A DNA stretch of 58,571 nucleotides, the filler included, from Sphacelaria rigidula (Eukaryota), in the NCBI GenBank assembly GCA_964200075.2. It is 7 parts of 7 records of this genome, joined end to end, with 100 filler letters (N's around TTAATTAATTAA, not from the genome) between each part and the next. Parts side by side here need not be neighbours in the genome. Positions count along the whole stretch, not along the records: positions 1 to 8,283 come from CAXNAA020011659.1; 6 more parts are not named here. One strand, given 5' to 3'. A program made the translations under genes and the position numbers. The notes beneath the pieces were generated by a model, which saw only the letters and a program-made list of their open reading frames with translations, searched no databases and was not told the DNA's origin. This document shows positions 1-50,168 of the stretch, piece after piece (the first letter of the stretch is position 1; the number at the start of each line of letters is the position of its first letter).

Positions 1-141
1 TCAACGACGATCTGACTCGAAACTTCGAGCAACAAATGCCCCAAAATACCCCCACCCCTATCGTAGGATGGCTCTTTAGCAGATGCGCCTGCTCGCCTTC
101 TAGATCTTACGGATAGTGATAGTGACAATTCGGCTCGCCCA

Positions 142-1626
142 TTGCCTTCTACCTCGGCTCGGTCACTAGCTGCCGTCGCCACAGCCAAACAACATGCTGC
201 CGCTGATAAAGCCGCTTCCGATACTCGTAGAGAAGCATCTCGTGTCGCTGCAATCAAGCGTGAGTACTTACAGGTGGATGTTAAGAAACTATGGCATATC
301 AAAACCATGCCTGCTGCAGACAATGAGGACTCTGGTTAGTTTACATCCGCTCTCATTTGCTCAATGCGTCGAACTATGCGCAACATCCTCGAGTTGGCCG
401 ACGCAACTGGACAACAACGTTTCGAAGACTCTGACTGGATTGATGGATGGCAAACCCCGTTACAAAAGTCTTTGCATCGCTTAATCAGCCGCCGCCCCCC
501 TGGCATCGCTGCCTCCTTGACGCAGATTCTCGACTCCTTCTTCCAAGCCATGGATCAAGATTGTGCCGGCGGGCAAACAGCGCCGCTACTATTCGGCAAT
601 TTGGAAAGGCGTATCATAAGTCATTTTGATAAGTTCGACCAGGCCGGCGCGATCAAGCACCTCAGCTCCTTCGCTGTGACAACGGATGTACCCGTCGCTG
701 ACTACCTACGCGAATTCAAGCTTTTGGTGTCTAGTGTAACTGGTACTGGCCGACAGAATGACCCTAGTGATGCTATGTGTCAGACGTATATTCGCAATAG
801 TATCGCTCAGCAACTTCCGACGCTGATGCCGTCTCTGTTTCCGGGCGCTTTGGCGCACAAAGAGTTGCCTTGCGCCTCCGTAGACGCGATGTGGACTGCG
901 TTTGTAGATCAAGAACATAATTTAACGCCTGCCATTCGTAGCACACAGTGTTCTTCTGGGTCTTCGCAGACCTTACATGCCGCATCCACGAGTACCTCCG
1001 GGTCGCGTGGACGCACTCACACTTTGTCCGGCAATACTTGGACACCCAACACTGTCGGTGGATCGGTCATGTCTGTTCATAGCTAAAAAGGCCCGTTCCG
1101 AGCAAGCTTCGACGCTTGGTCTTGTTCGGCAGACACTTTTGATGACGTTTATGTCGTTTCCACAACTGCTTTCATCACGGATGACCCACATTTGTGGACC
1201 CCCTTGCTTTCGCCTTCGGCTCGCAAGGACGCTTTTCGTCGCTATGCTAACACATGCATCAACTGCAATGGCACTGGCCACAGTATGCGTGACTGCCCTG
1301 AACCTTGCATCAATACGTTTTCGCTCGTGAACCCTAAACTTCAGAGCAACGGGCCGGCGTGGCGCCGATGGCAAAAATGCATGCGCGAGTATCGTACACC
1401 ATCTCGCCACCATCACCAGCCTCACCACAATCATAGTGACTCTCGCTCACATCGCGACCGTCGCCACGCCACCAACACCATCTCAGGTACTCCCCATCGA
1501 GATACTTCTTTCCGCGCTTCTCAGTCTTCGCATGGTCATCACCAGCGAACGGGGCGGACTCACGACAACTCAAACCCCAATGCCAGAAACCCTGGCTTTT
1601 TCATGACGGATCGCAACAACCCATGA
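142..1626 (+). pseudogene. gag: gag-like polyprotein (disrupted) with CX2CX4HX4C zinc knuckle
   Basis: ORFs 142-339, 364-1086 and 1192-1626 share one frame, separated by stops. CINCNGTGHSMRDC at 1255-1296. Confidence 0.8.
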
Positions 1627-2699
1627 CACGCCGATGACGGCGTGAAGTCTTCGGCGCCGCCGATAGCAGAATCGAAGACTCATCCAACACACACCGCCGC
1701 TTGGGTGACAAAACGTTCTCACCCAAACTTTTCGACTGTATGTAGGAGATCTAAGGACGGCCGTTCTTCTCGACCCCCGTCTCTGTCTTCTCACACACAG
1801 CGTAACCGCTGTGTTGACCCACCACCTAGCTCTATGCTTGGCTCCAGAATTGGTCCTCCGGAACCAAGTATATATCTGAGGTGTGGAAAGACCGACCGCG
1901 GACCCTTGAGGCACAGGCTTCCCTCAACGACCGCACACACCGGTTGTAGCAGAATTTCTTCAAGTGATTCTGGTGTTGATGATTTGAAACTGACCACTTC
2001 AAATCCTTCGACTCCTACCCAGCCTGATCGCAGTCATTCGTCGCGCCACCCTTCTGCCGCGAAACTACCCCAACATACAACGGAGAGCACTCGTCCCCTC
2101 TCACATTTAGCAGTGCCCTTTGTACCGAGCTTGCCAGCGTACAGTCCACAAGTTTCGGCCGAGCATGCTCCGATGCTGACAATATCACCTCAACTGGACG
2201 CAGTTGCAGTTTCTCAAGAAGTCTTGGAAGTTCCCAACCATTTTTCACGGCACGAGAGGAAGCCTCGTCGTCATGCCACCAGAAAAGCGCGAGCATCGAT
2301 ACCCCTCCCGCCAGCGGAAAATTCCGACCTCATTCTCCCCCAAAAGCGGCGACTTTGAGCTTGATGACATTGCCAGGCATCCAAGAGGAATCCGAATCGA
2401 ACCTTTCAGACGGTACCGCATCCACAACTGATGACCCCCGTGGCACTTCGCAGCAATCTCTCTTCAATGACAACCCTTGTGTTTCCAAGCCAGTCATCTA
2501 CGAGATTGATCAACATCCTGATTCACGCTGCTCCTCACGATCGGATCATATCCCCAGGCTGTCTACTGATACCTTTGAACCCCCCGCGGATCACCTACCA
2601 TCCGTCTTCACGGTCAGTCCGACAAATCCTGACCAATTCACGTTATCTGAACATGGCCCTGACCTCGTTGGTGGTAAGGTGTCCGTTGACCCTGCCACC

Positions 2700-3060
2700 T
2701 TCACTACCCACGTAGTATTGCACTGCGGCCCTTACGCCACCGCGCGCGCCAAGTGCGTCTCGTTATTAGATAGCGGTAGTGCACAGACATTCATAAAAAA
2801 ATCCATGTGGAATCATATGAAGCAGACTAGCGCTGCTTCCGATGTCTGCGAAATCACCACCCAACCTCGCGTTTGGGGCTGTTTCGGCGACTCCAAAACA
2901 CCCTTGACGACACGAAAATCTGTTTGTCTTAGTGTGCAATTTTTTCCCAGTGATACACGTTCGGCTAGTCTCGCAGTCTGGGCTTACATCGTCCCTGGCA
3001 GCACCATGCATCATGCTCTCCTTATTGGCAGAGATAGCTACATGCGATCGACCAACGTAC
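2700..3060 (+). pseudogene. Retropepsin-type aspartic protease domain
   Basis: VSLLDSGSAQTFI active-site motif and downstream LLIGRD motif in ORF 2355-3119. Confidence 0.85.
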
Positions 3061-3806
3061 GTACCGCACCCTCCCACCATTATCGCCTCAGTCGGCGCTT
3101 CGTGGAAAACTCCGACTAGAACACTTTGGTACCCTCAGTGGTGCCTTAGCCTACAAAAAGAAAGAGCAGGCTACCGGAGCGGCTTACCACCTTCGGGACA
3201 ATGGCAGTTCTGGTGTCACCCTTTCCGACGAGCCTCAACTCTCGGAAGTTTTGCTTGTTCGCAACGGTATGCCTGCCCTCATCGGCCTCTACCTTGCGGA
3301 ATTTCTACCTAAAGTTGGTGCGCCCGCTGGCACTGAGAATTTTGTCTCGGACGGCGAACAACATCTGCCTCTCACAGTGGCCATGCTAATTTGGAACCTG
3401 GCGATGTCTTGGGCATCGACGCGGCTCCTCTTATGCACATTCCTCTGGATACCTGTGTAGCCGACCCTCCGGCGCCCAGTCCCACACCGCCGACTGATGG
3501 TTATGTTCACTGCGTTGATGAGCAATACTTTAATCTATCCCCCTCACCCCCGACTCGGATTTCTGCGGTGGAATCCGACCGACCACCTGCTAAACCTCCT
3601 GATAAAGTGCTTCAACGCTTATCAGTCGAGTCTCGGGAACACTTCCTGCAAATGTAGCACCAACTTCCACCTCGTTTGCGTGATCTCCATTTCGATCTAC
3701 ATGGTCCGGGCTGGGAGCCCACATCATTCAAGAGTTACAAGATGTTCACCTGAAATACCAGGAAAGGGTTTTCCCATCCAAAACAGATGTCGGGCATTGT
3801 AAAACG

Positions 3807-5130
3807 TTGCCATTCGAGATAACCCTGCAATCTGGCGTTTCGCCAACGTCGTCTCGACCATATCGAACGAATCCCCTCCTCACCAAAAAAGTCAATGCTA
3901 TTTTGGATGCATACTTAGGAGCTGGTCTGATTTTACACTCGTCTCTCCCATGGGCCTCACCCCTCGTGGTCGTGCCCAAAAAAGATGGCAACATACGCAT
4001 CACAGTGAATTACAAACGGCTGAATCGCGTCACTGTCGTGGGAAAACTCCCCATACCTCGCATCGGCGAAGTCTTCCACTCTCTTGGCGAAGGAAAAATA
4101 TTTAGCACGTTCGACCTGGAATCTGGATTTTTCCAAAATGCAATTCACCCCGATACAGTTCCATTGACAGCGTTCTGTACATCTTCAGGGCTTCATGAAT
4201 GGCTTCGTATGCCACAAGGCGCTGCCACAGCACCTGACTGCTTTCAACGCCTCATGTAATGCGTTACTGACGGTCTCAAGCATGTTATCATGTATCTAGA
4301 CGATGCTATCGCTTTTGATGCCTCCCCCAAGGCGCATGTTTGCACTCTACGGGATTTCCTCTCCCGCTTGCATACACACGACTTGAAATTGTCTCCATCC
4401 GAAGCTCGACGAGGAGCTCGACGAGGAGCGACTGGATTAGATTTTTTGGGACACTCTATCTCCCCTGCTGGATTGCACCCAGACACGAACAAGGTCAAGG
4501 CTATGACTGACATGCCCATGCCCACCAATATTCTGAAGCTTCGCTCGCTGTTGGGCGGACTTTCTTATTATCGTAAATTTTTTCCCAACTTGTCCACGCG
4601 CATCCGGCCCATCACCGATTTATTGAAGAAACACGTCCCGTTTGTCTTCACTAAAGAAATGGAAGCTACCGTCCGCGAATTGCCCAAAATACTGACCGAA
4701 AAACCGGTTCTTTGTTTCCCGGAGGGGGATGCGGTACAAGACGGCTCACGTCTTTTCCAACTACACACCGATGCTAGCACAGATGGATTCGGCGCCGTTT
4801 TGAATCAGCCTCAACTGGATGGCTCTGTCCGATCTATTTTGTACATCAGCAGCGCAACCCTCCCAAACGAGGCAAACTGGAGCCCACTCGAACTAGAAGG
4901 CGGAGTCATAACTTGAGCTATTAAATGGCTTCGACAGTATTTGTTCCACGTGCCTTTCCACATCTGTACAGATCACGGAGCTCTTGAACAACTCGCTAAG
5001 GTTGGAGAACATGACCCCCGCGTACAACGGTGGGTGGAGTTCTCGACTGCTTATCAGTACACTGTTAAACACTTTCCGGGCGAAACCAACGGCAATGCTG
5101 ACCTTCTTTCGCGATTGCCTCTGCTCCCTA
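3807..5130 (+). pseudogene. pol: Reverse transcriptase + RNase H (disrupted)
   Basis: PWASPLVVVPKKDG, FSTFDLESGFFQ, MPQG, YLDD, FLGH, LHTDASTDGFGAVL, TDH, NGNADLLSR. Stops at 4257 and 4914. In-frame 12-bp duplication (ARRG x2) near 4404-4427. Confidence 0.92.
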
Positions 5131-6089
5131 CAGCGGTAGATTTCAGGACCGCTTGCCGCTTGATTGAACCTGATGAACCAGGCGTCTATCCCATTCCGCG
5201 TTTTTCTACGCCCATTTACGCGCTTGATCTTCAATACCCTGGAACAGGTCTGCACATGCCCCCCCCCCAGCCCTCTGCCCCTTGATACAGTTTTGGATGG
5301 CTTAGCTCCCACAGCTGCTCATTTCGTTGACTTCCGCACGTTCGGCCCTCGCGCGAACATCTCGGCGCCGCCACCACCAACTGTTTATCTCATCTCCGAC
5401 AACACGCGTTCTCGGTCGGCAGCGCGTGCAAATTCTTCGCGTGCCGTGCTACCACCGCCGCCGTCGGCCGCTTCTAGCAATGCGTCGCCGCCGCCGCCTC
5501 GCGCCCCGTACAACACCTACCACAACCGGCCGCGTGTCCGTGTTGTACCGACAACGTCCGCGCCCCTTGTGCACCCCACGCGCCGCTCACGTTCACCAGT
5601 TCGCGCTACCCCCACGCCGCCTTCTGGGAATCTCCCTGCACCTGCGCCTCTGACTTGCGCTACGCATGCGTCAGATCCGCTTTAGGATCAAAATGTCGAC
5701 GTCGGTACCCCTGCTTCCTCACCTGTGCCACCCCTTCCTGAGCCACCATTTTTGGCTGGCTCTCCGGCTGAAGGAAAACTTCGAAAATTTCTCGCTAGTT
5801 ACTCTCACCGCGACTGGGCTCGCGACCAACAACAGGAACCGCTCTGTCGCGCGACAATGCGGTACTTACGGCTTAACTGCCCCACCCGTTTCCCGGCTGA
5901 GATCCTGATCCCCGTGGGAACTCTACCCGCCCCCACCGCCTCTGAAGTGCTCGAGCTTGCACGCAAAGGTACCATCTTCACGACTGACGACGATGTCCAT
6001 TATTTGTTTGTTCGCCGATCCAACTCCCATTTGGGCACGGCTGCCGCAGTAACAACTGCCACTCCGGCACATATGCGTCATGACGCCCC

Positions 6090-7300
6090 TATCCGCATCT
6101 ATGTCCCCATCATGATGCGTCCGTGGGTCATGAAGGGCTGCCACTCTGATTTATCCTGCCACTTAGGCGTCACGCGCACGTTAGCGCTCCTTGAACCCCT
6201 TTTATTAGTGGATCGGCATGGAAGCATCCACGCGTTTTTGGATCCGACGATGTTTCAAATGTTAGGCTCGCAAACCCTCTCGATAGACTATACGATGGCC
6301 GGTGATCTCCATGGAACTTCCGAACACTCCTGGTCACTTCGTATCGTTTGACTACTTCGGCCCTTTACCCACCACTGACCGTGGTAATACCTACATTCTG
6401 CTTTTCACCGATCGCTTCAGCCGTCACGTGTCAATGTACGCTGTTACTGCTAGCGATTTCACTGCTGCCGGCACAGTGGACATTCTCGTCCATGACTACA
6501 TCAAGCACTATGGCTGCCCGAAACGGCTCCTCTCCGACAATGGTCAACAATTTTGCTCCGAACTCTCGGATGCTTTGTACAAGCTCCTTGGCATTCGTAA
6601 AATTGCCACGAGCGCCTACCACCCTAACGGTGACGATGGGACTGGACGTGTGAATCACCCTATGGCTCAAATGTTCTCCATGGTCGTAGACGACCGCCAG
6701 AATGACTGGGATCTTCATCTTTCGCATGTCATGCTGTCTTACAACAATTCGGTTAACGCGGCTACAGGCCTCTCGCCCAACGAGCTGCATCTTGGACGCT
6801 ACCCCCGTCTGCCCGTCACCGTTTTCGAAAGACATACCTTCGATGGTCACCAAGGTCTGGAACAGGATCAGGTGTCCTACCATGACCTCGCCAGGGCTCG
6901 TCAGCGCAAGGCCTTCACTTTGGTGCGCGAACAACACGCTATCAACGCCTCACGCCTTCAAAGATCCAATACCGCCCTCTACAACTTGATGCACAAACGC
7001 TCTACTTGGAAGATCGGCGATTGGGTCTGGATCTACAACAGGTTGTCCACCATCCGTCAAGGCGCGGACCGCACTGCCCATGCAACAGTCTTTGAAGACC
7101 AAACTGTTCCTTAATTGGACGGGTCCGTTCAAGATTCTCATAGTAGGACCCTCGCCAACGTCTCCTGACGGCAAGCCTGGTGGCGACAAACTCCTCTACC
7201 TGGATTTACCTCGTGACCTCCAGGGACATGACCCTAAATCTCGCGTCTCTGTACATCGTTGCAAGCCTTACACAAGCCCGCATGACACTACTGACATGCC
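6090..7300 (+). pseudogene. Integrase (HHCC, DDE core, GPF motif), disrupted
   Basis: HSDLSCHLG...CFKC (frameshifted), SFDYFGP, LLSDNG, WTGPFKIL. The expected catalytic Glu reads G (DGTGRVN). Confidence 0.92.
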
Positions 7301-7406
7301 TCAATACCTGCCTGCAGGTCTCACTCAATACGTGCTCAACAGCTACTCAACAAAATCTCCACCGTACCACGTTACCACCGATGACGTGACTGAACAACCT
7401 CTCCGC

Positions 7407-7562
7407 TTGGCCGTGTCCCACATTTCCGGCCATCAAACCACTCGAGGTTCTGGCGGCAAAACTGCTGTTATGTACAAGACACACTGGCAAAGTCTTCGGC
7501 GTGCGTCTTGGGAACGCGAGTCCGACCTTCAACTGCACCGTCGTGCTATCCTTCTTTATTGG
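7407..7562 (+). other. Integrase C-terminal chromodomain
   Basis: LAVSHISGHQTTRG...MYKTHWQSLRRASWERESDL matches chromodomain pattern VExI..HR...Y.V.W.G....WE.E..L. Confidence 0.75.
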
Positions 7563-7735
7563 ACGCAATCCCCACAGGAACAGCTCGCCGACAAAACAAA
7601 GGATATCGCAACAAGAGACGCGGTGCTGCAGCCCGCGAACTCCACCGCGACAAAGGGCTACGGTTTGTAGCCGATGGTTACAAACTCGTACCCACCAAAC
7701 AATGGGACGAGAAGATTCGCGCAAAACAACAACCG

Positions 7736-7940
7736 CTCCCTAAAGGTGCCTATTTGTGGTATGAAGGCAGCGATTACCTCTGGTGGCTAGGTCAGATCCA
7801 CTCCGTCGATACCCTCACGGCCGACACGTACATCGTGCGTTTCCTCGACGACCCTGAGCCCGTTCAGCTCAAGCTTCGCCCCGATTTATACATGACTAGC
7901 CCCTCCGCACCCCGCGGTTCCTGGTGCCTACAACGCTTCA
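7736..7940 (+). other. PWWP/Tudor-like (Royal family) domain after the chromodomain
   Basis: LPKGAYLWYEGSDYLWWLGQIHSVDTLTADTYIVRFLDD resembles PWWP consensus G.lVW.K..GyPWWP..I...Y.V.F. Confidence 0.6.
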
Positions 7941-8283
7941 AGTCACACGGCCTACGCCAAGGCCTTCAGCGCAATATCGGTCGTACACACTAATAGGAAG
8001 CCTCATGCACCGGGTGCATTGTCGCGGGAAGTTGTAGGCCTGCCATGGCCAGTTGAGACCAGGTATCATTTATGTAATTATTTCACTCTCGCATTTGCCC
8101 ACTCACACATAACACACACATGCTTAAACCACCACTGAATCAGAACTGACACACAACTACAACACCACTGAATCAAGTGGGGCGGGAAACCGTTCATAGA
8201 AAATCACACGTAACAACAAATTGTGCGAATTGGGGTTTAACTCCAAGATGAGGTCCAAGCCTAAACCAGTGCTTTCCCCACAC

Positions 8284-8383
8284 NNNNNNNNNNNNNNNNN
8301 NNNNNNNNNNNNNNNNNNNNNNNNNNNTTAATTAATTAANNNNNNNNNNNNNNNNNNNNNNNNNNNNNNNNNNNNNNNNNNNN
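8284..8383. other. Artificial contig linker (44N-TTAATTAATTAA-44N)
   Basis: Identical linkers at 8284-8383, 16666-16765, 25048-25147, 33429-33528, 41810-41909 and 50191-50290. The 12-mer puts stop codons in all six frames. Confidence 0.97.
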
Positions 8384-14560: not shown

Positions 14561-15827
14561 GTATCTCTCAAATACTATTCCGAAACGAGGCATACCAAGA
14601 ACCCACCCATGATCCGCAAGTTTGGAATGTATCACAGTAGTGTGGAGGCCTAGATTATTGCCCTTTGATGCCACTCAGCGTTGTTATACCTGAAATTTAC
14701 GGCGCTACGCTATAGTTGCACGGGGTCGAGGCACCAATTTCTTCTGCGGATGGTATGGCATGTTTTCAAATCGAGGGGTAACTAGCTGCAGAGACCACGA
14801 CCATGTCCACGGGAACAATGCTGCGAGCGACATGAGTTTCAATAAGGAGAACTGCGCCCCTTGATATGCATTGCAGTTATACATGCATGCATCATATGCG
14901 GACATACATACATACCTCATTGTATAGTCAATCCACCGTGCAAGATAGGGCCACTTTGATGCGGATGCAGTCGGCTGCGGCTCTCCTGTCTTCTGCTGAA
15001 GCACCCGTCTCTTGTCGTATTTTAATTTTGACTGCTAACGCTTCCGTCATTATCTTGGATAATACATGATATTTGACGTACGCATCTGACGTTGCTATTC
15101 AAACTGCAGCACCTTCCTGTATCACATCAAGCCTCCATATATCAACATCCATCTCTCAGAGTCCGAAAATTCACCATTTTTTCTTGCGATAGGTACTTCT
15201 TGTTTTCAGCCGACGACTATCTGCACTGGACGGCCTGTGGTACCAAAGTGCCCCACACAGGTCAGGAACACTAAGTCCGAAAAACAGAGAAGGGCAACAT
15301 GCAACATGAACTTCTTGAGTTTGTAGTATACACCTGACCAATTCCTTCGTCGCTGGCTCTTGCAATGACCCACCCGCATCTACCTTTCGTTGGTGCTATG
15401 CGCAGCACGGTGCAGTACCGCCAGTGCAGTGGAAAATGTAAGAGCTTTACTGCTGCTTCATGCGGGTGAAACAAAGCTGGGTGTGCCTTTCGTTCTTCTT
15501 CCTGTTCGCACAACGAATCTTGAATCTTCATGGCTCCCTCTCGTGTCCTGCGCTGCAGTGTGGATCGAATAAAGTCACAAGGTCATCCAACAAACGCATA
15601 TTTCAGCATACGTCATATTCCGACTCTCAGATAACAACTCATGCTGCACCAAGTGCGAGATGGCTGTAATGCGGACCGCGTGCTTTTTGGATTCCATCGG
15701 AGTTCAACCCTTGGACCGCAAGGGAGTCCATTTGGATCATGCATACTTTTTTTCAAGTGAAATTGATGCCGATTCAGCAGATGTCCTTCTCTTTACGTCT
15801 GAGGGTTCAACACCCCTATGGTCCGTG

Positions 15828-15875
15828 TTAGGGTTGGGGTTAGGGTTAGGGTTAGGGTTAGGGTTAGGGTTAGGG
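15828..15875 (+). repeat. Interstitial telomere-like (TTAGGG)n tract
   Basis: About 8 units including one TTGGGG variant. A shorter CCCTAA tract lies at ~17506-17523. Confidence 0.85.
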
Positions 15876-16918
15876 GCGCGGTCCTTGCAGGGACTGTTCC
15901 GAGCGGTCTTGAAAAATATCGGTCCCTGGGTATTTTCAACTCCGATGTGGTCCAATAAGCACGCGATCCGCTCACGCACTACAATGACAACCCAAATCTC
16001 GCTCCACGCGGCCGACAACAGTCAGGGAGGCTGTAGCGCGAGCACCGTATCATACGAAGTACAAGTAGATGGCCCGAAGTGGGCTATGGCCGCACAGGCA
16101 AAACTTCCCTCACAATGCAGCAAGTCAAGGGCAAACAGCGCGCTACTCGGCCATGCTCGACCAGCAACATAGTCAGTCGGGGTTATGCCGTCGGCCCTGG
16201 AGCAGCGGTCTGTTGAAAATCCGTATGTACCGGTGTTGTAGTCTATGGTACAAACGAGTTTCGCCACACGTCATAAAGGTGCCAAATCTACCCTTGTTGT
16301 GGCACCCCCGTTCGCAGCGACGGAAACAACCTTCATACTCGTAACGTCGTCGTACTATCCAATCTTCGAACGAACACAATGCGGGGGAACCCTGGCATGC
16401 AGTGAATCGCCAAAACAATTGCGGGTCAACCGTAGCACTCTCTGCGGAGAAACAGGAAAGGAAGGTAGCGTATATCATTTTCTCCTGTGGGAATCTCTCG
16501 GACCTTGCCAGGCTCCCATTTTCGGTGCCTGGTCATTAGGCTGAATGACGGAGCCATGGGATGTTTTCAAGGCGATATATTCGACGCCAGTACGAGCTGG
16601 GCCAGCCTAAAAACGGATTTAAGCTCTAAAAGCAATATCTCATCGACACAGACGAGTTGGGCCGTNNNNNNNNNNNNNNNNNNNNNNNNNNNNNNNNNNN
16701 NNNNNNNNNTTAATTAATTAANNNNNNNNNNNNNNNNNNNNNNNNNNNNNNNNNNNNNNNNNNNNGAGTCAGGGGGATTCAGTCAGCACGAGTCAACTTC
16801 TTATACTAAAACCAAGTACTTTCCTGACGAATCATTATTTGTTCTAACCGTGAATACTTTTAAATGGCATGCGGTAGGATGGTGGTCGTCCATGTTCCAG
16901 AGGTCATATCAAACCTTT

Positions 16919-25000: not shown

Positions 25001-25147
25001 AGGAGATAGGCGGAGAGCAAGACGAAATACTACCCATAGATGAAGACNNNNNNNNNNNNNNNNNNNNNNNNNNNNNNNNNNNNNNNNNNNNTTAATTAAT
25101 TAANNNNNNNNNNNNNNNNNNNNNNNNNNNNNNNNNNNNNNNNNNNN

Positions 25148-29797: not shown

Positions 29798-32700
29798 GTG
29801 AGGATCCCGGGAACGTCGCCACTACCGGGAGGAGCACAGGGCGTACCAGCAGCAGGCGGATGCCGGATGGCTAAGCGCTGGGATTGTGATGCACCAGGAG
29901 CAGCAGCTGGAGCTGCGGTCCAAGGTCTGGAATCGAACCAGTTGGCGAAGGTGCGCGAACGGGTACGTGGGCGTATTTCGCGTGGTCGACCATGCCCAGT
30001 GTACGCAGGACCAAGTGCGGGGGAATTATCGGTTGTCAACAGCACTGTCGTGCTGCAACACCAGATATGGTCGACGCTGCGTGCAATGGACCAAGGAGTT
30101 TTGAAAATGCCGGGAGATGAATACGTCAACGGTAAGAGGGTTACACAAACAGATCAGTACTCCGCCCGCCGGCGCGACCTCCTGATCGAGTTGCTGGCAG
30201 AAACCAGCGGTACTCATACGTCCTTAACCGCAGCGGATCGGGTAGACGTCTATCGAATCACGGGCGAAACCGATACCGTCCCACATGAATCCGTTACTAT
30301 GACCGACTGGCTACGGATCCTCGTCCGTGAAGAAGTGATGACGAACGGAGCTACTAAGTTTATACACGCTGCACTAGACGCCATCACCTTAGGTCCCAAC
30401 GAGTCGTGAAGTGCGGGGGCGCAACGGGTGTTGCTAGCATTTCGCGCGAGTTTAGCTAACCCAGACCGACCATACAGTACCGAAGCCACGTACTTCTGGC
30501 GATTTGTCACTGCCCGGCAGCTAAGTGAGCTTTACGACCGTATTATCCGAGTCATTCTGCCTAACCCGGTTGATAGGCTAGGTCTACAGTCGATCCTCCA
30601 CGAAAAAACACACGCAATCTGGGCCAGGCTGCAGCCTCTGAAAAACGAGTGGCACAATCCTGTGGGGTTGGCAATGCAAAGAAGGGGGGACGTAGCCAAG
30701 AGTCTTTACGAGGATTTCATCCGTATCGTGTGCGCCCGCAACGTAGTATACAGCGACGACAGTCACGCCCGCTCCCAACCGCGGACTAGCAACCGCGGCG
30801 CGGGACCTGATAGATTATTTTCACTCGAGGAAGTAAGGAACTTGCTACAGTCGCCCCCGGAGGTGGCCGCAATGCTCCAGCAAACTAACCCGGGGTCACC
30901 TCTCTTCCCCGAAATGCCGCCCGCCCTGTCAGCCCCTGCTGCGTCCTTTAGTTCTCAGGCGTTAGCCGGCCACCACTCGGCACCTTCCGTCGCGGCGTTC
31001 AACAACCACCTGGCGGTCTCACCGGGCTCATACGGCGTGCCCTTCATGCAGAAAAATTCGACACCCATCAACCCCGGTCCCCGCACCACGACTCCGGGTC
31101 ATGCCGTCCCACCCCGCGCGGCAGATTTGCAGCACAAACCCCCGGCACCGCCGTCTGGCAGCGCTTCGCCTACACCGACACCCGCCACATCCGCCCAACC
31201 AGTCGGTCCGGCCTCTGCTCCCGAACCATCCGCACCGCCGATTTCCGCGGGACGCGACGCAGTGGTTACCTTCTGACATGATAGTAAAATCCGTTTTGGT
31301 TACGCATTCACCGGCTCGTGCCGTCACCGTGGCAACACCCCCTGCCCTTGGACGCACGGTATCATCCCCGCTGCACACTACAGCGGCCTACCGGCCCACC
31401 GCAAGACGGCCATTCCCCAACGCCGCCTAGCCGTGCTCACGGAGGCGCAATACATGGCGGCAATCGACCTGGGTCTCATCGGCGAAGGCGACGACGATGA
31501 CGGCGAGGAAATGCTGAGCGCATCCGTAAGCGAGGCTGACGCTGGAGACACACGAGCTGACGCGTGAAGGCGCGCCCCAGGTACAATTGACCTGGGGAAC
31601 CTCCGCCAACCCAGCGCCACCACAATATCCCAGCGTCGAGGAAGCCAACTTTGGGTGACAGGCGAGATCTGGCATCGACGGCGTCTCCGTCGGCCGTGGC
31701 CGATAGAAGTCTTGCTGGACACGGGAGCGGGAGGGGGCAACTATATGTCAGGAGCGTTATGGCGCAGCTTACACAAGGCCAACATCCTGGACGATACGCC
31801 AAACCCTGAGGCGGCAGGTGTTCTCTGTGCAGCTAACCCATCCCAGAGTAAGGTTCCCCCAATGCGCATAATCGGTTCCGTAACTGTGCCCTTGCTTTTG
31901 ACCTCCGACTCACGGGTCCGTAATGTACCAGTGCGAGTAGTGGAGGGCCTGTCGTACGGCTTCATTTTAGGTGCAGATTATTTCCGGTACACTAACAGTA
32001 TCCTAGATTTCGCCCCAGGAAAAGGGTTCCGCCCCTCGCCAGCGGCACCGTGGATCCTGTTCCTGACGAGCGAAAATCCTACGTACCACATTCAAGATAT
32101 ATTAGTAGCCCTGTACACCGCGACGGAAACCACCGCCTCCCTAGCTGCGCTCGCTTGTCCGTCCACCCCCAACTACCCCAGCTATCGCGACATAGCTCGG
32201 GAAGACGACACTACCCTAGAATGAAAGCTGCGCTTGGTCGGACAAACGATCACGCTCAGCGGCTTCGTCAGCGCCGCGGTAGAAACAGCCGCAATCGGTC
32301 CTCAACCGCAGGATAAGCAGCTTGTGCTTGTATTCCCACAAACAAAGTTCGACCTGGACACGGGGGCAGAGGTGGGGATCGCGAAGGGAGTATCGTGGTG
32401 GCAGCCGGGGTCGCCGGTGTACTGTAAACTTGTAAATAGAAGTAAGGAGCAGGTGGCGGTAAAACCTACTGGCATGGTCGCGCGTATGATAGCACTGAAC
32501 GTACGCGATCCCACCAGGTTTCACTCACTGTTTGATCCCCACCCGTCTATAACAGACCCCCCCGTGGACCCCCCACCCCGCGCCTCACGTTCAGACAGTA
32601 GTTGCTCGGCCCAACCAAATCCTAAGGTCAACGTGAAGGACGCCAACACGGGCCAGCTTGGAGCAGCGGAAGAGAGGGAGCTGGTAAACACGTTGCTGAG

Positions 32701-33428
32701 CTTCATCGAAGCTGGCTTGTTCCCCACAGACCCCAAGCGGGTTCCCGCTTGTATCAATGGTGAGCTCGAACTCCCCCTAACTAACGAATCATGTACGCCA
32801 TTCGCAGCTAAGCAGCGTCGATTTTCCCCGGAGGAACGTCACATGATCTGCGAAGAGATACACAAGCTTCTTGATCGCGGGATCATTCGACCCTCAACCA
32901 TTTCCCGTGGGCAGCCCAATCCCTATGCGTGAAGAAAAAAGACGGCACCCTGCACTTGTGCATTGATTGGCGTGAACTGAACAAACTGTTAGTGTCGGAC
33001 AGCGGGGGTCTCGGGAATATGCAATCCATTTTCGACGTCCTCAACGGTGAGCGTTACTTCACCCAACTCGACCTGGCCTCCGGTTTCCACCAAATCGAGA
33101 TCGCGGAGAAAGATCGCTTCAAAACGGCGTTCTGAGATGCAGATCGCCTCTTATACGAGTTTACACGAGCAGACTTTGGTCCAACAGTCCTACCCGCCGC
33201 GTTCACCCGTCGGGTGAAAGGTACGGTAGGACAGTTGGGTGGAGTGTTCACTTGGCTTGACGATATTCTTATCGTGACCACATTCTGGGACGAGCATCAA
33301 GCCCTACTCGTGATCGTGTTACAACGCTTGTTGGTCGCGGGATTCTCGGTGAACTTCGCCAAGTGCATTTTTGCATCGGCGTCGCAAGAGTTTCTGGGCA
33401 TGCTGGAGTCATCCTACGATAGGGGGGG
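29798..33428 (+). mobile_element. Second decayed Ty3/gypsy element (gag-like, protease, RT), truncated at contig end
   Basis: Gag-like ORFs 29798-30409 and 30428-31276 in one frame. Protease VLLDTGAG...FILGAD. RT motifs KKKDGTLHLCIDWRELN, FTQLDLASGFHQI, WLDD, FLG. Stops and frameshift present. Confidence 0.9.
31655..33428 (+). pseudogene. pol: pol (protease + RT, disrupted)
   Basis: ORFs 31655-32224 and 32234-32932 in one frame, then a frameshift to 32929-33135 and 33214 onward, carrying RT motifs. Confidence 0.88.
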
Positions 33429-34015
33429 NNNNNNNNNNNNNNNNNNNNNNNNNNNNNNNNNNNNNNNNNNNNTTAATTAATTAANNNNNNNNNNNNNNNN
33501 NNNNNNNNNNNNNNNNNNNNNNNNNNNNGGTGTGTGGGGGTGGGGGGGTGGGGGGGGGGGGGGGCTATTTCTCACTTTTGAGACGTTAGTGGCACAGGTT
33601 TTGCCCCCCAAATTGGGAATATCGTCGTCACGTGTTGGAAACTTAACTTCAACCCACCGAGAGGAGTCTAGCCTACCTTTTCCGATACGATTGGCTCCGA
33701 GGTTTCGAGAATGACCTCTGAACAAAGATACAGCTGGAAAAGAGAATGCGGCGTCCGCGTTTTTTGTCCAGCCCTATTTGGGGGCCAAAGACCGCATCAA
33801 ATGTTCTACAACGTGGCCCAAAATGCGAACCGTGAGAAACGGTCTATCTTTTTTTTTTCTGCATTAAATTGTCCGTTCATTATTTCTTATATGTTGATAG
33901 TTAGTGTTTTCGTGTCTCCATCTCCAGTTGTTCGTTGTTTCTGTATTCTGCCCAGCCTTTCATTCCCGTCCTTATTGTTCTTTCCACCCCCCCAAAAGAA
34001 TCCGCTGTTCGTTGG

Positions 34016-35561: not shown

Positions 35562-36135
35562 CAACGAGCATGACTCGAGTGCTCGCCCTACATTTTTTTT
35601 CCACAACGAGCAATGACTCGAGTGCTCTCGCCCTATTATTTTTTTCCACAACAACGAGAAATGACTCGAGTGCTCGCCTTACTATTTTTTTGACACAACG
35701 AGCAATGACTCGAGTGCTCGCCCTACTACTGTTCTCCACAGCAAGCTATGACTCGAGTGCTCGCCCTGTTGATTTTTTCCACAACGAGCAATGAATGACT
35801 CAAGTGCTCGCCCTATTGACTTTTTCCACAACGGGCAATGACTCGAGTGCTCGCCCTATTGATTTTTTCCACAATGGGCAATGACTCGTCGAGTGCTCGC
35901 CCTACTAACTTTTTCCACAACGAGCGATGCCTCGAGTGCTCGCCCTGTTGATTTTTTCCGCAACGAACAATGACTCGAGTCCTCGCCCTGTTGATTTTTT
36001 CCACAACGAGCAATGAATCACTCAAGTGCTCGCCCCATTGATTTTTCCCACAACAACGGGCAATGACTCGAGTGCTCGCCCTACTAACTTTTTCCACAAC
36101 AAGCAATGACTCGAGCACTCGCCCTATTAATTTTC
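35562..36135 (+). repeat. ~43-bp minisatellite, 13 copies
   Basis: Unit approximately caacgagcaatgactcgagtgctcgccctattgattttttcca. Each unit has an internal CGAGCA/TGCTCG inverted repeat. Confidence 0.95.
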
Positions 36136-39610: not shown

Positions 39611-40030
39611 CTGGTAGCTACGGGCAAAACCGGATAGAGGATATGACCCACATTTGATGTGTACTCGTTTCGTTGACGTGCGTCCTTATACGTGGGATGT
39701 CACAATGATTCTGGACGCTTGCGAGGTGATACGCCGAAACATTTTTGACATGACGATTTTGGACATGAAGATAGCCGCTGTGGAGCTGTTCCTCGCCCTC
39801 CAACCTTCTACATTCCCATGCTGGTAGCTACGGGCAAAAACGGATAGAGAATATGAACCACATTTGATGTGTACTCGTTTCGTTGACGTGCGTCCTGATA
39901 CCTGGGATGTCGCAATGATTGGGGACGCTTGCAAGGTGATACGCCGCAATATTTTTGACATGACGATTTTGGATATGAAGATAGCCGCTGTGGAGCTGTT
40001 TCTCACCCTCCAACCTTCTACATTCCCATG
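39611..40030 (+). repeat. 210-bp tandem duplication (2 copies)
   Basis: 39611-39820 vs 39821-40030, about 14 substitutions by eye and no indels. Confidence 0.95.
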
Positions 40031-40494
40031 CTTCCTACCCTCTGCTCTTGTCCGCCGACAGACGGTCCCGCGAGTCGCTGAAGGATCTTTAACTGTAGAC
40101 ATGACATGGGGCGGTCAGCAAGAGTTATATTCAAGCAAAAAGATTTCGCCAGTTATTCACACATTAGTTTGCTCAAGCATCATTCTTGTACGCTGATATC
40201 TCCATATGCTGGCGCGGTCTCAGCTTCTTCTCTGCTGAAAAAACCCGACAAAATGCCGATGGCTGTGACACATACCCACAAACGGCCTTTTTCTGTATAG
40301 GTGTTGCCTCACCACCGGCCACGACTATTCTGACCACCCCACCCCTACCCTCGACCACCCCTGAAGAAAAAACGAGCGCTCGCGTTCGTTCAGCGTCTGG
40401 TTAGGGGACCGGGACCTGAGCAGCACAAGTGGTAACCGCCAATACTCTCATGTTCCGTATGCCGCATGTGTGTTACCTTGTGTTGGGGTTCTAA

Positions 40495-41774: not shown

Positions 41775-43994
41775 CTTCACATTAAAAACCGTTTCGATAT
41801 CTGCGCGGTNNNNNNNNNNNNNNNNNNNNNNNNNNNNNNNNNNNNNNNNNNNNTTAATTAATTAANNNNNNNNNNNNNNNNNNNNNNNNNNNNNNNNNNN
41901 NNNNNNNNNTTCCTTCCTGTGCCATGAGGTCATGAACCTCTCCGTTCCCTGCAGCACTTCCGCGTGCCACGGCAACCCCCCCTCGTGTGAGAAAAAATCC
42001 GTCAGACGGTTTTGAGGTTACCGACTGAGCCACCGGGGCGACTGAAACCCCCAAACTAGTGTCCATTCCATATCAGGCACTGCCGCGCGAATTTTGGTTA
42101 GCAAGAAATTTTCACTCGGAGAGTGCAGAGAGGACCGTGTGTGTGCGTGAGTGAATCGTCATGGTTTCTTTCAAAATTTACGTGTGATCTTGGTCATGAG
42201 TGAGCGAACGGTAAACGAACGCTAGTTGACACCGTTATGCCTACAGGCCGTCCGGGGAATGGACGGGTCCTCTTGCGCCTCTTCCGATGTTCAGGGGGTA
42301 ACACGTATCGTACGTCCTCGGTAGATGTGTCTCAAGAGTTCCAATCCAAGACGTTGACCTTGACGCTTCGCACCTCCATCGTATTGCACGAATCAGGATC
42401 TCTGTGATACACATCCTCTCGAAAGCCAACCACGAATTGGAGGAAATGATCGTACTCAGCCGGAAAGTGTGAAGTGCTTGTGCGACCTAAACGTTCATCT
42501 CCTCGACCCCTCGAGTTCAATAGTCTCATGGCCATGGTCTGCATGAACATGAGTACAACCCCCTCGAGTTCCAAGAGGCATCACTTCCTCGTGTCGGATA
42601 TTGTCCTCACACACATCAACATTTTCCCCAAATTTCGCAAGACCAACGTGTTGGATGTCTGTTCACAACAAGTACTTGCTTCCATGAACACCACACGCGG
42701 ATCACAAACTGGAACAAGGGCTCAACTGTAACCTCGAGACATTACACGGGTTAAGAGTGGTACTCCTAACCGGTAGTCACCGATCCAGGGTTTTCATGTA
42801 GTATGTCCGATAGGGGACAGCAGGAGAACCATGGATGCATAATTTTCATCAATAACACTAGGGTATTTTCATGTCTCGCTCCATCACGTTTCGTGGACAT
42901 GATCTTGGTCCAAGACAATATCCAAGAGGTCAAAGACACGACACCTGTAGTATGACTTCACAAGTTCGACCATTCATCCAGATTGACATTTACCGCCTCC
43001 ACGGTTCACACCATACCGCTGTGTGGGTGTAGTGTCGTGCGGTTTAACCAGGGCACCAGTGTGAAAAATATATATTGCATACCGTTGCTGTTCATGTCTC
43101 TGTTCCATCTCTTTTTTTCTCTCTGTTGTGCTCGGGGAGGGCTCCCTCTCACCATTCTCGTCGTGTATTTCCCATTTTTGTGGTAATGTGTCTCGTGAGA
43201 GGTCAGGATACGGTGCTGGAAAGGCGAGCTTGAGTCCCACGTACGGAAATGATGGTGACAAAATAATTATAGTCGTGCCCCGACAATGTAACCTACATCC
43301 CATCTCTCGAAGACGTGTTGGAGTGGTAGAGAAATGACACTGCTTAGCCCTGGACTGCGGGATGAGTCTTTCTGGATCATGCCTATTTTCTTCACTTCTA
43401 GTTGATGCGGGTCGTCGTCATCATCATGTATCCGAATGGCGGGCGTAGTATCTCATGTTGGAGCGAAGGACTATAATAGAACGACGCTGGGCCGGGAACC
43501 GGTACCAGTTGTTGACCACCCCGAAGTGGCTCTTGTTCCAACATCGCGGGTGGGGATCATCAACTCACGACGCGAGGCTCAGACATCACTTCGAGACTCT
43601 CGGCCATGAGGCGTGCTGGCTGAGCTCGTGATGAGGAGTCTCCGACACGTAACGAATGTGTCACGCCCTTACTCGGACGAGATCGTGGATCTACTCCGGA
43701 GTGAATGGAGCAGTACAGTTGCCAACCCCACGACCACCAGATGTGAGCGCACGCACCGCACCATATTTTTCAAGTGCGAGTATGTCGCCACTTGAAAAGC
43801 TGGATAGGGTTGGTCGACCATGATCAAAAACAGCAGTCGAATATAATTCGTCGTTCATTCTTCCCCGTACAGAGCAAGCCTCACGCAGCGCACAACAGGT
43901 CCAACACCCGAACACCCTCTTTGTACAAGTCTACCACCGCGGCCACGCACTCTTTCGTTCTCTACCCGTCAGCAACTGGACCAAGTCAGGCGTC

Positions 43995-44043: not shown

Positions 44044-47000
44044 CTTTGGAAGCGGGCGAGATACGGCACATAGTGGGGGGGGGGGGGGGGGGGGGGGGGA
44101 AAGGAAGGAGGTTTTTTTTTGGATTTTTGTTTTGGGGTTTTTTTTGGAAGAAAATCCCAACAGGAATTCCNNNNNNNNNNGGGGTGGGGGGGGGGGGGGG
44201 GGGGGGGGGGGGGGTGGGGGGGGGGGGGGGGGGGGGGGGGGGCGGAAGTGATCGATGTTATGTTTTGGAATTTTGATCTCGGGATATTTCGTGACGTGAA
44301 TGCCATCAGGACTTCCGCTTCAAGAACTATATGGAAACCTCACTGGGCGTTCATTTGGAATGATCTACTCAGGCGCTATACTCAAATAGCATGTGATTGC
44401 CCGTAAGCGCGACATCGCTCGCGTGACCTCCAAACGGGAAACAATTTTTTTTTCCTTCCGAATCGCGATGGGCCAACGCCAGCTGGTACTCACCCGGAGT
44501 AGAGGATGCTGCCGTTGTTGGACCAGCAGAGGCAAGTGCAGTACGGCACGATCGCCTTTGGAGACAAGAGCTCGGGGAACTCAGGTCGGAGCTCGTCCAC
44601 CACCACCTTCGACTCGAGGTCCCAGATCTGGTTCAAAGCGTCGTGCACAGAATAATCAGAGGAATTTCATCGAACCAAGAGCGAGTCAAATTTCGGCGTC
44701 ATGCATGTAACGTGTGGATTCGTCGCACGAAGAACCCAAACAACTCAAGCTTTATCATGATGCTGCGGACAGTGGAACAGTGTAGCAGATTTCTCATGGC
44801 ATTCTCCCAGCAACTCCACCCGTTAGATCCACAGACAACATTGGACACAAATGGGGTTGGGGTTGGGGTTGGGGTTTCTTCATGTTGCGGTACTCCTCAG
44901 GCACACACCTTGATGCCTACAGTGGTGGCTGCGCACAGCCAGTAGCGGTTCGGCGAGAAGACGAGCGAGTGGATGATATCACCAGCATCGAGCGAGTACA
45001 GACGTTTGCCCTCCTTGAGATCCCACAACATGGCCGTGCCATCCTTGCCACCGGAGGCGCACAGAGACCCATCAGGCGACACCGTCACGGTGTTCAAGTA
45101 TCTGCTCGAACCACGTAACACGCGTCACAGCGAGAAAATTGTCAGATTTGATTCTTGATATTGGAAAACCAAAATGAACGTGCTGATTGAGGGCGAAAAA
45201 CGAAAAATGGTCGTTCCACAGGATGTTGTTCAGAGACGGAATATTTTGCAAAAGTTCAACAGTAACCATGACCAACACCAACGGAATTATCCTGCTGTGA
45301 CAATATATTTCTCATATGCACGACAGAATACTTTTTCCGAGGCGGCTCGGCTTCCAGACTGTATCAGTCGACAGGTCATACCACGCACGGAATCCTTTGC
45401 CAATTGTACGCAATTTTCTTGCGTCCAACAGACCAGGAGCGTGGCAGGCTTTTAAAACTGATTTTGTTTTTTTTCTTCGGGCTCATGACACCCCTCGTCA
45501 ATTTCACGCTCTCCCCTTTTTGGGCCGTGCGCGTACGAATCGAGGGGCAACGCCTGCTGACACCCGGGCATCCTTTACATCACAAAAAATAGGTCACTAT
45601 CATATCGCAATTGAGTAAGGTATCATCCTCACACGACCAAAATACCTCAGCGACCACTCATACCCATGTAGAAATGGGGTCACGAACCTACCAAATACTG
45701 GAGGCGATGCTGATGGGGCTACGATCATACTCGCTCACCCGGTATGGCCGATGAGGTTCGTGTGCAGCTTGCAGTTCGATAAAGCCCAGACCTTCACCAG
45801 CTTGTCCCATCCCGCGGACACGATTACCGGCGCAGACGGCGAAGGCGAGAATCGTACACAGGATACCCACTCGGTGTGACCCTGAATCCACGACACGAGA
45901 AGATCGAGTCGGGCATCAATGAGGACCGTACAAGGGCATATGGAATTGTTCGAACGCTTGCTCCCGCAGAGGACAAACGGAGATTTCTCTGGTGAGTCAA
46001 CCGTAGTAGTGCAGTTGCATGCAAGTTGAGCAGAATTCATGATAAAGCTCACAAAATGTCGGCTGCAGCGGTGTTTGTTCGCTCAAATAAAGTCCCAGAC
46101 ATCGATACAACCGGACTTGTACACAAACCGAAGGATGGAATCACACGTGCCAAGGGCATGCAAAAAAATCATGTATCAGTCGACAGGTCTTACCACGTAC
46201 GGAATCCTTTGCCAATTGTACGCAATTTTCTCGCGTCCAACAGACCGGGAGCGTGGCAGGCTTTTAAAACTGATTTTGTTTTTATTCTTCGGGCTCATGA
46301 CACCCCTCGTCAATTTCACGCTCTCCCCTTTTTGGGCCGTGCGCGTACGAATCGAGGGGCAACGCCTGCTGACACCCGGGCATCCTATACGTAACAAAAA
46401 GACTGATGGCAACAAGAGAGTAAGGTACTACCCTCATACGACCACAAAACACCCTCCCGTGGACGGGGTTTGGTGAAAATCTTGAGGGTTTGCACGTGCT
46501 CATATGTGAAATTGGCAACATGAGCGGTGGGAATTAACTCGTATTTGAAATTTGTGTTGGGAAATCATGTTTCGTCTCCGCGGTGAAGGATTCAAAACGA
46601 ACAATAATGGCCAACAAGCCATGGTAGTCTTCCATGCCAGGACTGGAAGATGCAGATTTCGTCATGACAGATACGCGAACCCCGAGACACTTAGTTGAAT
46701 GACGAATTTTGATATAGCCACGAGCAGTCTGTCGTCATGGACGTCGCCTTTGTGGCTCTACCTAGTTCAGATTCGTCACGACTGTGGGGGAAAGGGGATC
46801 TTTCAAATACGAGTCCGCCTTCCTTTTCGTGAAGAAACGAAGAGCCAGTCTCATTACTCACATCTTCCTGAATAGTATACTTGCACTCGCCGAGGGTGTT
46901 CCACAACTTGATGGTTTTATCGCGAGATCCGGACACGATTTGCCTGAAGACGAGACAAAGGATGGAAGCCAAGTTGCAAATCGGTGTGAACACGGGGCCT

Positions 47001-50108: not shown

Positions 50109-50168
<60 letters not shown>

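Follow-up and report, generated by a model that had tools for sequence, protein, structure and literature searches.

We describe the 3' end of a Ty3/gypsy retrotransposon copy in DNA of Sphacelaria rigidula (NCBI GenBank assembly GCA_964200075.2), in which the integrase is followed by a chromodomain and then by a further conserved stretch of about 130 residues, referred to below as the tail. The window, that is, the whole stretch of DNA that was analysed, is 58,571 bases long and consists of seven pieces, each about 8.3 kb in length, with spacers of the form N(44)-ttaattaattaa-N(44) between them; because the pieces are joined in this way, neighbours across a spacer are possibly not neighbours in the genome. 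The element lies on the + strand of the first piece (1-8283), and no second DNA copy of it was found in the whole window.

Along the piece follow a gag-like open reading frame (ORF), whose CCHC knuckle is borderline, the protease region, reverse transcriptase (RT), RNase H and the zinc-binding and core domains of an integrase (Table 1). The order protease, RT, RNase H, integrase that characterizes Ty3/gypsy elements is given by the Pfam matches, by collinear polyproteins of relatives and by the match of a family profile (A4) to the Ty3 Gag-Pol structure (PDB code 7q5b, E = 1.7e-117); RT and integrase matches dominate this last search, which is uninformative on the C-terminus. Intact relatives are collinear with 2640-7978 of the window in eight segments, equivalent to seven frame changes, and with two in-frame stops in addition to these frame changes in pol the window copy is dead. 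The zinc-binding and core part of the integrase is 55-57% identical to intact polyproteins and changes frame near 6180-6200. No pair of direct repeats that could represent the long terminal repeats (LTRs) was found within 1-8283, a piece that is cut at both ends. Contig depth peaks from 7996, and 20-25 contigs per DNA run diverge in sequence before 7991; this depth and these loose ends suggest that the 3' LTR begins just past the stop codon, near 7991-8000, and the tail would therefore reach the very end of the internal region.

Table 1. Features of the Ty3/gypsy copy in the first piece, and the spacers of the window.
Feature	Position	Strand	Evidence or remark
Gag-like ORF piece with CCHC zinc knuckle	1087..1626	+	zf-CCHC E 4.5e-4, 20.6 bits against a cut-off of 20.8; upstream of pol
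Protease region of pol, holds LLDSGSAQ	2553..3119	+	Collinear with relatives' N-terminal pol from 2553/2583; no Pfam match
Reverse transcriptase, in-frame stops 4257-4259 and 4914-4916	3684..4916	+	RVT_1 E 5e-11; 52-60% identity to intact polyproteins
RNase H	4647..5285	+	RT_RNaseH_2 E 2.6e-12; RT_RNaseH E 2.6e-9 and 2.5e-6
Integrase zinc-binding domain and catalytic core, two frames	5686..7114	+	Integrase_H2C2 E 0.018 (weak); rve E 1.7e-9
Integrase C-terminal region, from WTGPF (7116-7130) up to the chromodomain	7116..7397	+	
Chromodomain with only the middle cage aromatic (W)	7398..7574	+	Family profile against PDB; Pfam score of P0244; cage columns
Frame break, two extra letters (7593-7594) in an A-rich run	7590..7597	+	Frames join at 7592/7595
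Arginine-rich linker and N-terminal extension of the tail (YR.MR.GAA.REL.R..G.RF..GY.LV...W)	7595..7735	+	Conserved columns
Tail core, putative Tudor-like beta-barrel (LP.GA..WYK..D.LWWLGKI...Y.VRFLDDPGP...L....Y)	7736..7891	+	PHF19/PHF1 Tudor matches align here
Conserved C-terminal extension (A..GSWCLQ.H...G..RN.D) and stop 7991-7993	7892..7993	+	
Probable polypurine tract and 3' LTR start, truncated at the piece end	7994..8283	+	Inferred
Spacers	8284-8383, 16666-16765, 25048-25147, 33429-33528, 41810-41909, 50191-50290		

Integrase, chromodomain and tail in one ORF

The initial annotation had proposed that a chromodomain lacking its first cage aromatic follows the GPF motif of the integrase, and that beyond a frameshift near 7590 the frame continues for about 130 residues; each of these points was borne out. 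The WTGPF motif lies in the frame of an ORF spanning 6990-7670, and the chromodomain downstream of it translates as PLRLAVSHISGHQTTRGSGGKTAVMYKTHWQSLRRASWERESDLQLHRRAILLYWTQSP. Taken alone, this sequence has no Pfam Chromo match and reaches the cpSRP43 chromodomain in the PDB at only E = 0.87. A profile of 11 family rows with the window copy first (A6) gave 14 PDB matches at E ≤ 10, the best nine of which are all chromodomains: MPP8 three times (E = 0.0008-0.001), Swi6 (E = 0.0012), cpSRP43 four times and CHD6, with the MPP8 and Swi6 matches spanning profile positions 6-57. One of eight relatives scanned, P0244, exceeds the curated cut-off of the Pfam Chromo model (PF00385; 26.8 against 25.1 bits), and sub-threshold Chromo matches were obtained for five of these eight and, in another scan, for eight of 32.

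The aromatic cage of the HP1 chromodomain is formed by Y24, W45 and Y48 (PMC3350952). In the family, the column of the first cage residue holds L, I or M in ten of the 11 rows (L in eight) and F in one, and the W of the second position is invariant. The third position is also lost, a point missed by the initial annotation: the window has L, and the column is non-aromatic in ten of the 11 rows (L in seven, I, D and F once each, the F being the one aromatic row; two of the L rows are offset by one column in a locally shifted stretch).

The two letters that shift the frame between chromodomain and tail sit in the A-rich run gacaaaacaaagg. The frame of 6990 reads ...YWTQSPQEQLAD (also given as ...SPQEQLAD) and ends at 7592, the other frame reads NKGYRNKRRGAAARE... 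from 7595, and the closest intact relatives, P0259 and P0349, read ...SPQQQLADNKGYRNMRRGAAARE... without interruption; since these two read through, it is the window copy that has two extra letters. P0259 is 86% identical to the window tail over 99% of its length, and P0349 belongs to its cluster at ≥90% identity. Among contigs of related copies assembled from public runs, the two letters are left out at 7590-7593 in three of four runs, namely X1 (one contig, depth 49.2/49.2), X4 (two contigs) and X5 (one contig, depth 118.7/128.1), and no such omission occurs in run X2 (0/1241.7 depth). The majority of the contig family differs from the window at the conserved tail codons 7614, 7763 and 7857, as expected for a decaying copy. 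The break near 7590 is a lesion of the window copy, among many others. Past it the frame runs for 132 codons to the stop and holds KGAYLWYEGSDYLWWLGQI...YIVRFLDD.

In the predicted proteins of intact family members, integrase, chromodomain and tail form one ORF, with the tail neither absent nor out of frame. A single uninterrupted frame joins them in P0259 and P0349, in P0161 and P0174 from the window's own clade, and in P0008 and P0003; the full polyproteins P0156, P0157, P0165, P0167, P0171 and P0173 likewise carry the tail in the same ORF. Five loci were found in metagenomes, and the three long enough to judge all have ORFs that are unbroken through integrase, chromodomain and tail (L001, with a pol of 1636 residues; L002, 2386 residues and open at its 3' end; L003, 598 residues); the other two are L004, a 99.3% copy of L003, and the decayed L005. 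The GPF motif, the WE motif of the chromodomain and the WWLG motif of the tail are all present, in recurring order, in 36 of 50 GPF-bearing relatives. The first of these motifs stands 130-132 residues before the second in 35 of the 36, and the spacing is exactly 132/89 in 29.

Two features of the data could suggest that the tail is instead a separate small gene starting at an internal methionine, or a mere open frame in decayed DNA. The tail of the window is in a different frame from the integrase, and many short database proteins begin with a methionine that corresponds to query residue 9-10 (rows 10-132 aligned to 2-123; P0007, P0009, P0012 and P0016). We consider this highly improbable, as the same methionine is internal to unbroken ORFs in every long relative and in L001-L003, and the frame difference in the window is due to the two letters that are missing from close relatives. 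The short models can be taken as gene calls on broken copies, because the sequence upstream of them often holds out-of-frame chromodomains, and a chance frame is excluded by the selection acting on the tail and by its ≥264 relatives, both described below.

Conservation and putative fold of the tail

A search of 1.84 billion representative proteins with the 134-residue translation of the tail retrieved 264 relatives at E ≤ 1e-3, 88 of them at E ≤ 1e-10, and a search with a nine-row profile retrieved 550 proteins at E ≤ 1e-3 in the class of 68-371 residues. The window tail retains all 15 residues that are nearly invariant in an alignment of 145 sequences. Between the tails of L001, L002 and L003, the proportion of nonsynonymous differences (pN) is 0.24-0.28 against 0.68-0.74 for synonymous ones (pS), and the corresponding rate ratio (dN/dS) is 0.09-0.20, a value that is only rough because dS is saturated; the fractions of variable sites at codon positions 1, 2 and 3 in four tail copies are 0.55, 0.51 and 0.91. 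These substitution patterns show the tail to be under purifying selection. Residue conservation was counted over 227 unique tails, or fewer where a column is gapped: W57 is kept in 207 and D87 in 208 and, in the C-terminal extension, W112 in 195 of 216, C113 in 198 of 214 and H117 in 170 of 208, the window having F at position 117. Mean pairwise identity among 16 intact proteins is 0.72 in the integrase C-terminal domain, 0.65 in the chromodomain, 0.44 in the linker, 0.52 in the barrel and 0.49 in the C-terminal extension. Standard Pfam annotation has no name for this conserved domain.

Four profiles of the tail, A1 (61 rows), A5 (150 rows), A8 (145 rows) and A7 (nine rows), gave 15, 10, 2 and 4 PDB matches, respectively, at E ≤ 10. 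Twelve of the 15 matches of A1 are constructs of the PHF1 or PHF19 Tudor domain (PHF19, E = 0.0047-0.0058; PHF1, E = 0.062-0.44). PHF19 was matched by A5 at E = 0.0043-0.0059 and PHF1 at 0.98-1.2, along with mL86 at 0.15-0.17, and the A8 matches comprise PHF19 at 0.032-0.043 and PHF1 at 2.2 and nothing else. A7 found neither protein, its matches including biotin carboxylase at E = 0.27. The Polycomb-like Tudor domain is the sole recurrent solved match of the tail, with marginal E-values, and some 40 residues are aligned, LP.GA and FLDDP being the two ends. The four lists at E ≤ 10 are free of PWWP, SH3 and chromodomain chains.

No Pfam model exceeds its curated cut-off on the tail. Among 150 tail members, the sub-threshold matches point to small SH3-like barrels, with counts for SH3_VIII-1_N (17), Agenet (13, best E = 0.0018), PWWP (three, best E = 0.12) and Tudor_2 (one), besides Chromo in three owing to the chromodomain part. 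Of the PWWP/Tudor-like reader that the initial annotation had seen here, the more general half therefore stands tentatively, a Royal-family fold being indicated by PHF19 matches at E = 0.004-0.04 with three of the four profiles; a PWWP domain in the strict sense is not supported by the comparisons (no PDB chain; three of 150 members in Pfam, E ≥ 0.12). The LWWLG motif sits where PWWP domains presumably have their name-giving motif, which we take as a lead only. Language-model neighbours of the tail-only homologue P0016, all scoring below 0.9, include clusters of Spin/Ssty, Agenet, PTM_DIR17_Tudor, PHF20L1 Tudor and Tudor-knot domains and are likewise no more than a lead; those of the homologue P0245 also all score below 0.9. 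The barrel is not detectably a duplicate of the integrase C-terminal domain or of the chromodomain, hhalign comparisons with each giving a probability of at most 3.6%, and a 97% match between profiles A7 and A6 merely reflects the end of the chromodomain that is shared by three A7 rows. The fold of the tail is probably that of a Tudor/SH3-like barrel with family-specific extensions.

In the five-stranded barrel of the PHF1 Tudor domain, trimethyl-lysine is bound by a cage of W41, Y47, F65 and F71 (PMC7492083). Y47 aligns to W66 of the tail, which is aromatic in 216 of 226 tails (W in 215), and F65 aligns to F85, aromatic in 198 of 227 (F in 196). Other near-invariant aromatic residues, W57, Y58, W65, Y81, Y101 and W112, lie near the cage positions, as does the acidic pair D87/D88.

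Taken together, we interpret the region as the 3' end of pol in a dead Ty3/gypsy copy of brown-alga type, whose integrase carries a degenerate chromodomain and a Tudor/SH3-like barrel with a role in chromatin tethering, and we assign this interpretation a probability of about 0.6. In one frame, the catalytic core and the C-terminal domain with the GPF motif are followed by a chromodomain that has only the central W of its cage, an arginine-rich linker, the putative barrel and the extension. The barrel, of about 55 residues and rich in invariant aromatic and acidic residues, would most likely be of the Tudor/SH3-like type (Royal family), and the extension adds about 30 conserved residues (GSWCLQ.H). 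By analogy with the chromodomains of chromoviruses and with the recruitment of HIV integrase through LEDGF, such a module probably tethers the complex of integrase and complementary DNA to chromatin and may thereby bias the sites at which new copies insert.

Several observations weigh against this interpretation. On the side of the chromodomain, only one of three cage aromatics is kept. On the side of the barrel, the cleanest small profile, A7, drops to E = 1.3 for its Tudor match (Drosophila PCL), and none of 150 tail members passes the curated Pfam cut-off for any Royal-family model. Only two of the four positions aligned with the PHF1 cage are aromatic: W41 aligns to position 60, a small residue that is aromatic in none of 227 tails, and F71 falls, by ungapped extrapolation, on P91, again aromatic in none of 227. 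MTF2, which has three of the four cage residues, is already a weak binder (PMC7492083). A direct-coupling analysis of 209 tails (effective number of sequences, Meff, 88.7) was too noisy to be used, its top pairs forming no consistent strand ladder. A chromodomain without its cage next to a second barrel would fit a rewired reader, but both cages are incomplete; with one of three and two of four aligned aromatics, respectively, to speak of two readers, as the initial annotation did, overstates what the alignments suggest.

The incomplete cages of both domains would also suit an alternative in which the tail extends the integrase and is conserved for a role other than reading histone marks, binding DNA or RNA, another integrase subunit or a specific host protein that acts as the tether. 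The commonest sub-threshold Pfam match is an SH3 model (17 of 150 members), the window tail alone matches an SH3 domain in the PDB at E = 1.1, the linker is arginine-rich, and Ty-type elements use host factors for tethering. This explanation is possible although on balance unlikely, given that no solved domains other than methyl-lysine-reading Tudor domains recur in the profile searches, that 181-216 of about 227 tails retain the six aromatic positions and the DD pair, and that the tail always stands behind the chromodomain at a fixed spacing.

Lineage, relatives and other features of the window

The relatives that carry a species name are all brown-algal: Ectocarpus sp. CCAP 1310/34 (CAB1106230.1 and CAB1104650.1), Nemacystus decipiens and Undaria pinnatifida. 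A NADAR domain precedes RT in the polyproteins of all seven relatives of ≥1900 residues and in L001 and L002 (Pfam E = 1e-38 to 1e-52), being in L001 a separate ORF upstream of the pol. Polyproteins with both NADAR and tail are P0175 (Ectocarpus), P0188, P0194, P0197, P0201, P0202, P0208, P0218 and L002; P0228 has NADAR, and its model is truncated before the tail. In the window, no NADAR match was obtained by tblastn with five NADAR-bearing N-termini or by Pfam. The roughly 900 bases at 1627-2552 have no NADAR similarity and no Pfam match, whereas the relatives carry NADAR in L001:1382-2998 and L002:190-7347, and the alignment starts only at 2553.

A tree of integrase cores separates the window copy, P0161, P0173 and P0174 from 51 rows that include all known NADAR rows, with 98% support in the Shimodaira-Hasegawa-like approximate likelihood-ratio test (SH-aLRT). 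The predicted proteins show the tail on both sides of this deepest split of the sampled lineage; as chromodomain and tail both occur on the two sides, the tandem predates the split. With clusters of 185 and 197 members at ≥90% identity and 832-1070 matching contigs per DNA run, the lineage is large and recently active.

The tail also occurs without an integrase. In P0068 (626 residues) an unrelated N-terminus is followed by chromodomain and tail, and in P0031, P0153 and P0034 a coiled-coil-like, Ser/Arg-rich N-terminus is followed by the tail alone; no counterpart to the N-termini of P0031, P0034 or P0068 was found in the gag or pol of the collected relatives, in the window or in the PDB. In the tail tree, P0031, P0153 and P0034 group with P0016 in a set of four (98%), which lies inside a set of eight (95%) with tails of transposons. 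Domestication, deletion within an element or chimeric gene prediction could each account for these proteins.

The chromatin of Ectocarpus carries H4K20me3 on transposons (94.6% of peaks), H3K79me2 on repressed blocks and H3K36me3 on gene bodies, with H3K9me2/3 barely detectable (PMC7784034); brown algae are described as lacking DNA methylation and H3K27 methylation (PMC13076208), with little H3K9 methylation detectable and with H4K20me3 and H3K79me2 on their repeats instead (PMC7784034; PMC13076208). A bolder proposal, which we regard as doubtful, would make chromodomain and tail a bipartite reader that evolved in such hosts and recognizes H4K20me3, and perhaps H3K79me2, through which new copies land in already silent, transposon-rich chromatin, and would take the integrase-less P0068, P0031, P0034 and P0153 as signs that the cassette has been exchanged or domesticated.

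Some further observations concern individual relatives. In P0162 (Ectocarpus CAB1106230.1), a segment of some 88 residues that starts where the chromodomain ends and reaches the WW motif occurs twice in tandem at the C-terminus. Three gene models have unusual partners, namely TIMP and WSC domains with the tail in P0004 (Nemacystus), a protein kinase with integrase C-terminus and chromodomain in P0177 (Undaria) and a Copia-type integrase with a NADAR Gypsy pol in P0188 (Nemacystus), and all three are probably chimeric predictions across insertions. Upstream of the NADAR ORF of L001, at L001:886-1272, lie four to five tandem copies of a 78-base GC-rich unit.

Elsewhere in the window, a second, unrelated retroelement remnant occupies 29798-33426 on the + strand and is cut by the end of its piece; its RT fragments at 32875-33132 and 33136-33426 (RVT_1 E = 1.9e-6 and 1e-7, 27-31% identical to the RT of the family) are preceded by four long ORFs without Pfam matches. 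An open frame at 48785-49462 (+) matches the first part of the NMD3 domain (Pfam E = 6.3e-16) and is probably an exon of a ribosome-export factor gene. Repetitive stretches comprise eight copies of GTTAGG, a permutation of the telomere unit TTAGGG, inside a piece at 15827-15875, a 43-base satellite of 12.9 copies at 35562-36134, a 210-base unit in two copies at 39611-40032, a run of 62 G at 44181-44242 adjoining a gap of 10 N, and a run of 57 C at 50110-50166 right before a spacer.

Comparison with known integrase fusions and chromatin readers

The site at which a retrotransposon inserts decides both the harm to the host and the survival of the element, and the clearest known route by which elements choose chromatin is the fusion of a reader domain to the integrase. 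With the integrase of this family, the rewiring of targeting where the usual heterochromatin marks are lacking can be studied on a specific protein, which may also serve as a natural probe of brown-algal chromatin marks. Capture of chromatin readers by transposable elements is established and mostly involves Chromo and PHD domains (bioRxiv 10.1101/2021.11.30.470311). Chromodomains steer the integration of chromoviruses (Gao 2008, as cited in PMC5053271 and PMC3350952), and that of MAGGY directs integration into chromatin with H3K9 methylation (PMC3350952; bioRxiv 10.1101/2021.11.30.470311).

The closest published systems are four Gypsy lineages of Ectocarpus (PMC12477816, Genome Biol 2025). 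Three of them, lineages reported to be unrelated to chromoviruses or Chronos, have a putative C-terminal chromodomain, and one of the three also has NADAR (for example Gypsy-12_Ec32); the fourth, Gypsy-10_Ec32 (11.5 kb, with LTRs of 636 bp), ends in a Tudor domain, is called the first transposable element with such a domain and has a homologue in Tribonema. The initial annotation had presented a reader module of this kind as notable in brown algae. Fusions of readers to Gypsy integrases, Tudor included, have been on record there since 2025; the tandem of chromodomain and tail goes unmentioned in the text and table of that paper. For an integrase with chromodomain and Tudor or PWWP domain together, the literature yielded nothing beyond PMC12477816, whose figure and alignments were not covered, and general surveys.

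The tail might simply be the published C-terminal Tudor of Gypsy-10_Ec32, and hence already known. That domain belongs to an Ectocarpus Gypsy element with a homologue in Tribonema, the domain calls in PMC12477816 were made by InterProScan or HHpred, and the Ectocarpus proteins CAB1106230.1 and CAB1104650.1 carry the tail. The same paper, however, keeps the Tudor lineage apart from the three chromodomain lineages, Gypsy-12_Ec32 being both NADAR- and chromodomain-bearing, whereas the tail is found in NADAR-bearing polyproteins, always after a chromodomain, and no Pfam Tudor model exceeds its cut-off on the tail. We consider the identity improbable: because the tail occurs in elements that bear NADAR and a chromodomain, it is probably distinct from the Gypsy-10 Tudor, from which it is set apart by the published description.

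Returning to the interpretation of a degenerate chromodomain followed by a Tudor/SH3-like barrel, the family resembles the lineage of Gypsy-12_Ec32, a Ty3/gypsy element in which a putative chromodomain ends the integrase; NADAR is found upstream of RT in relatives of the window copy, and the Ectocarpus NADAR protein CAB1104650.1 ends in the tail. In the text and table of PMC12477816, that lineage is nevertheless described with a chromodomain only, and the domain of about 130 residues after it goes unmentioned. The window copy itself differs from the NADAR lineage in having no NADAR match and in belonging to a sister clade of four rows. With Gypsy-10_Ec32 the family shares a putative Royal-family reader that is fused C-terminally to a brown-algal Gypsy pol, but the published description presents that element as a lineage of its own that has no chromodomain (PMC12477816).

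Chromoviruses (MAGGY, Tf1 and the plant Tekay and CRM elements) and the oomycete Chronos elements have the same succession of integrase and chromodomain as the window family, but with that single reader (PMC5348765). Plant chromovirus chromodomains of group II are without the first cage aromatic, and usually without the third, but have W45 (PMC3350952), which is the pattern of the window family; they are said in that source to be known from plant elements only and, unlike the chromodomain here, are not followed by a second domain. Among solved structures, the Tudor domains of PHF1, PHF19 and PCL are the best match to the tail, sharing a G, an LG pair and the F.DD motif over about 40 residues, whereas W41 and F71 have no aromatic counterpart in the tail and these 55-residue domains lack its N- and C-terminal extensions. 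A functional parallel may be LEDGF/p75, whose PWWP domain reads H3K36me3 and tethers lentiviral integrase (PMC5053271), a Royal-family reader thereby bringing the enzyme to marked chromatin; there the reader is a PWWP domain of a host protein, whereas here, where PWWP is not supported, the putative reader belongs to the integrase itself.

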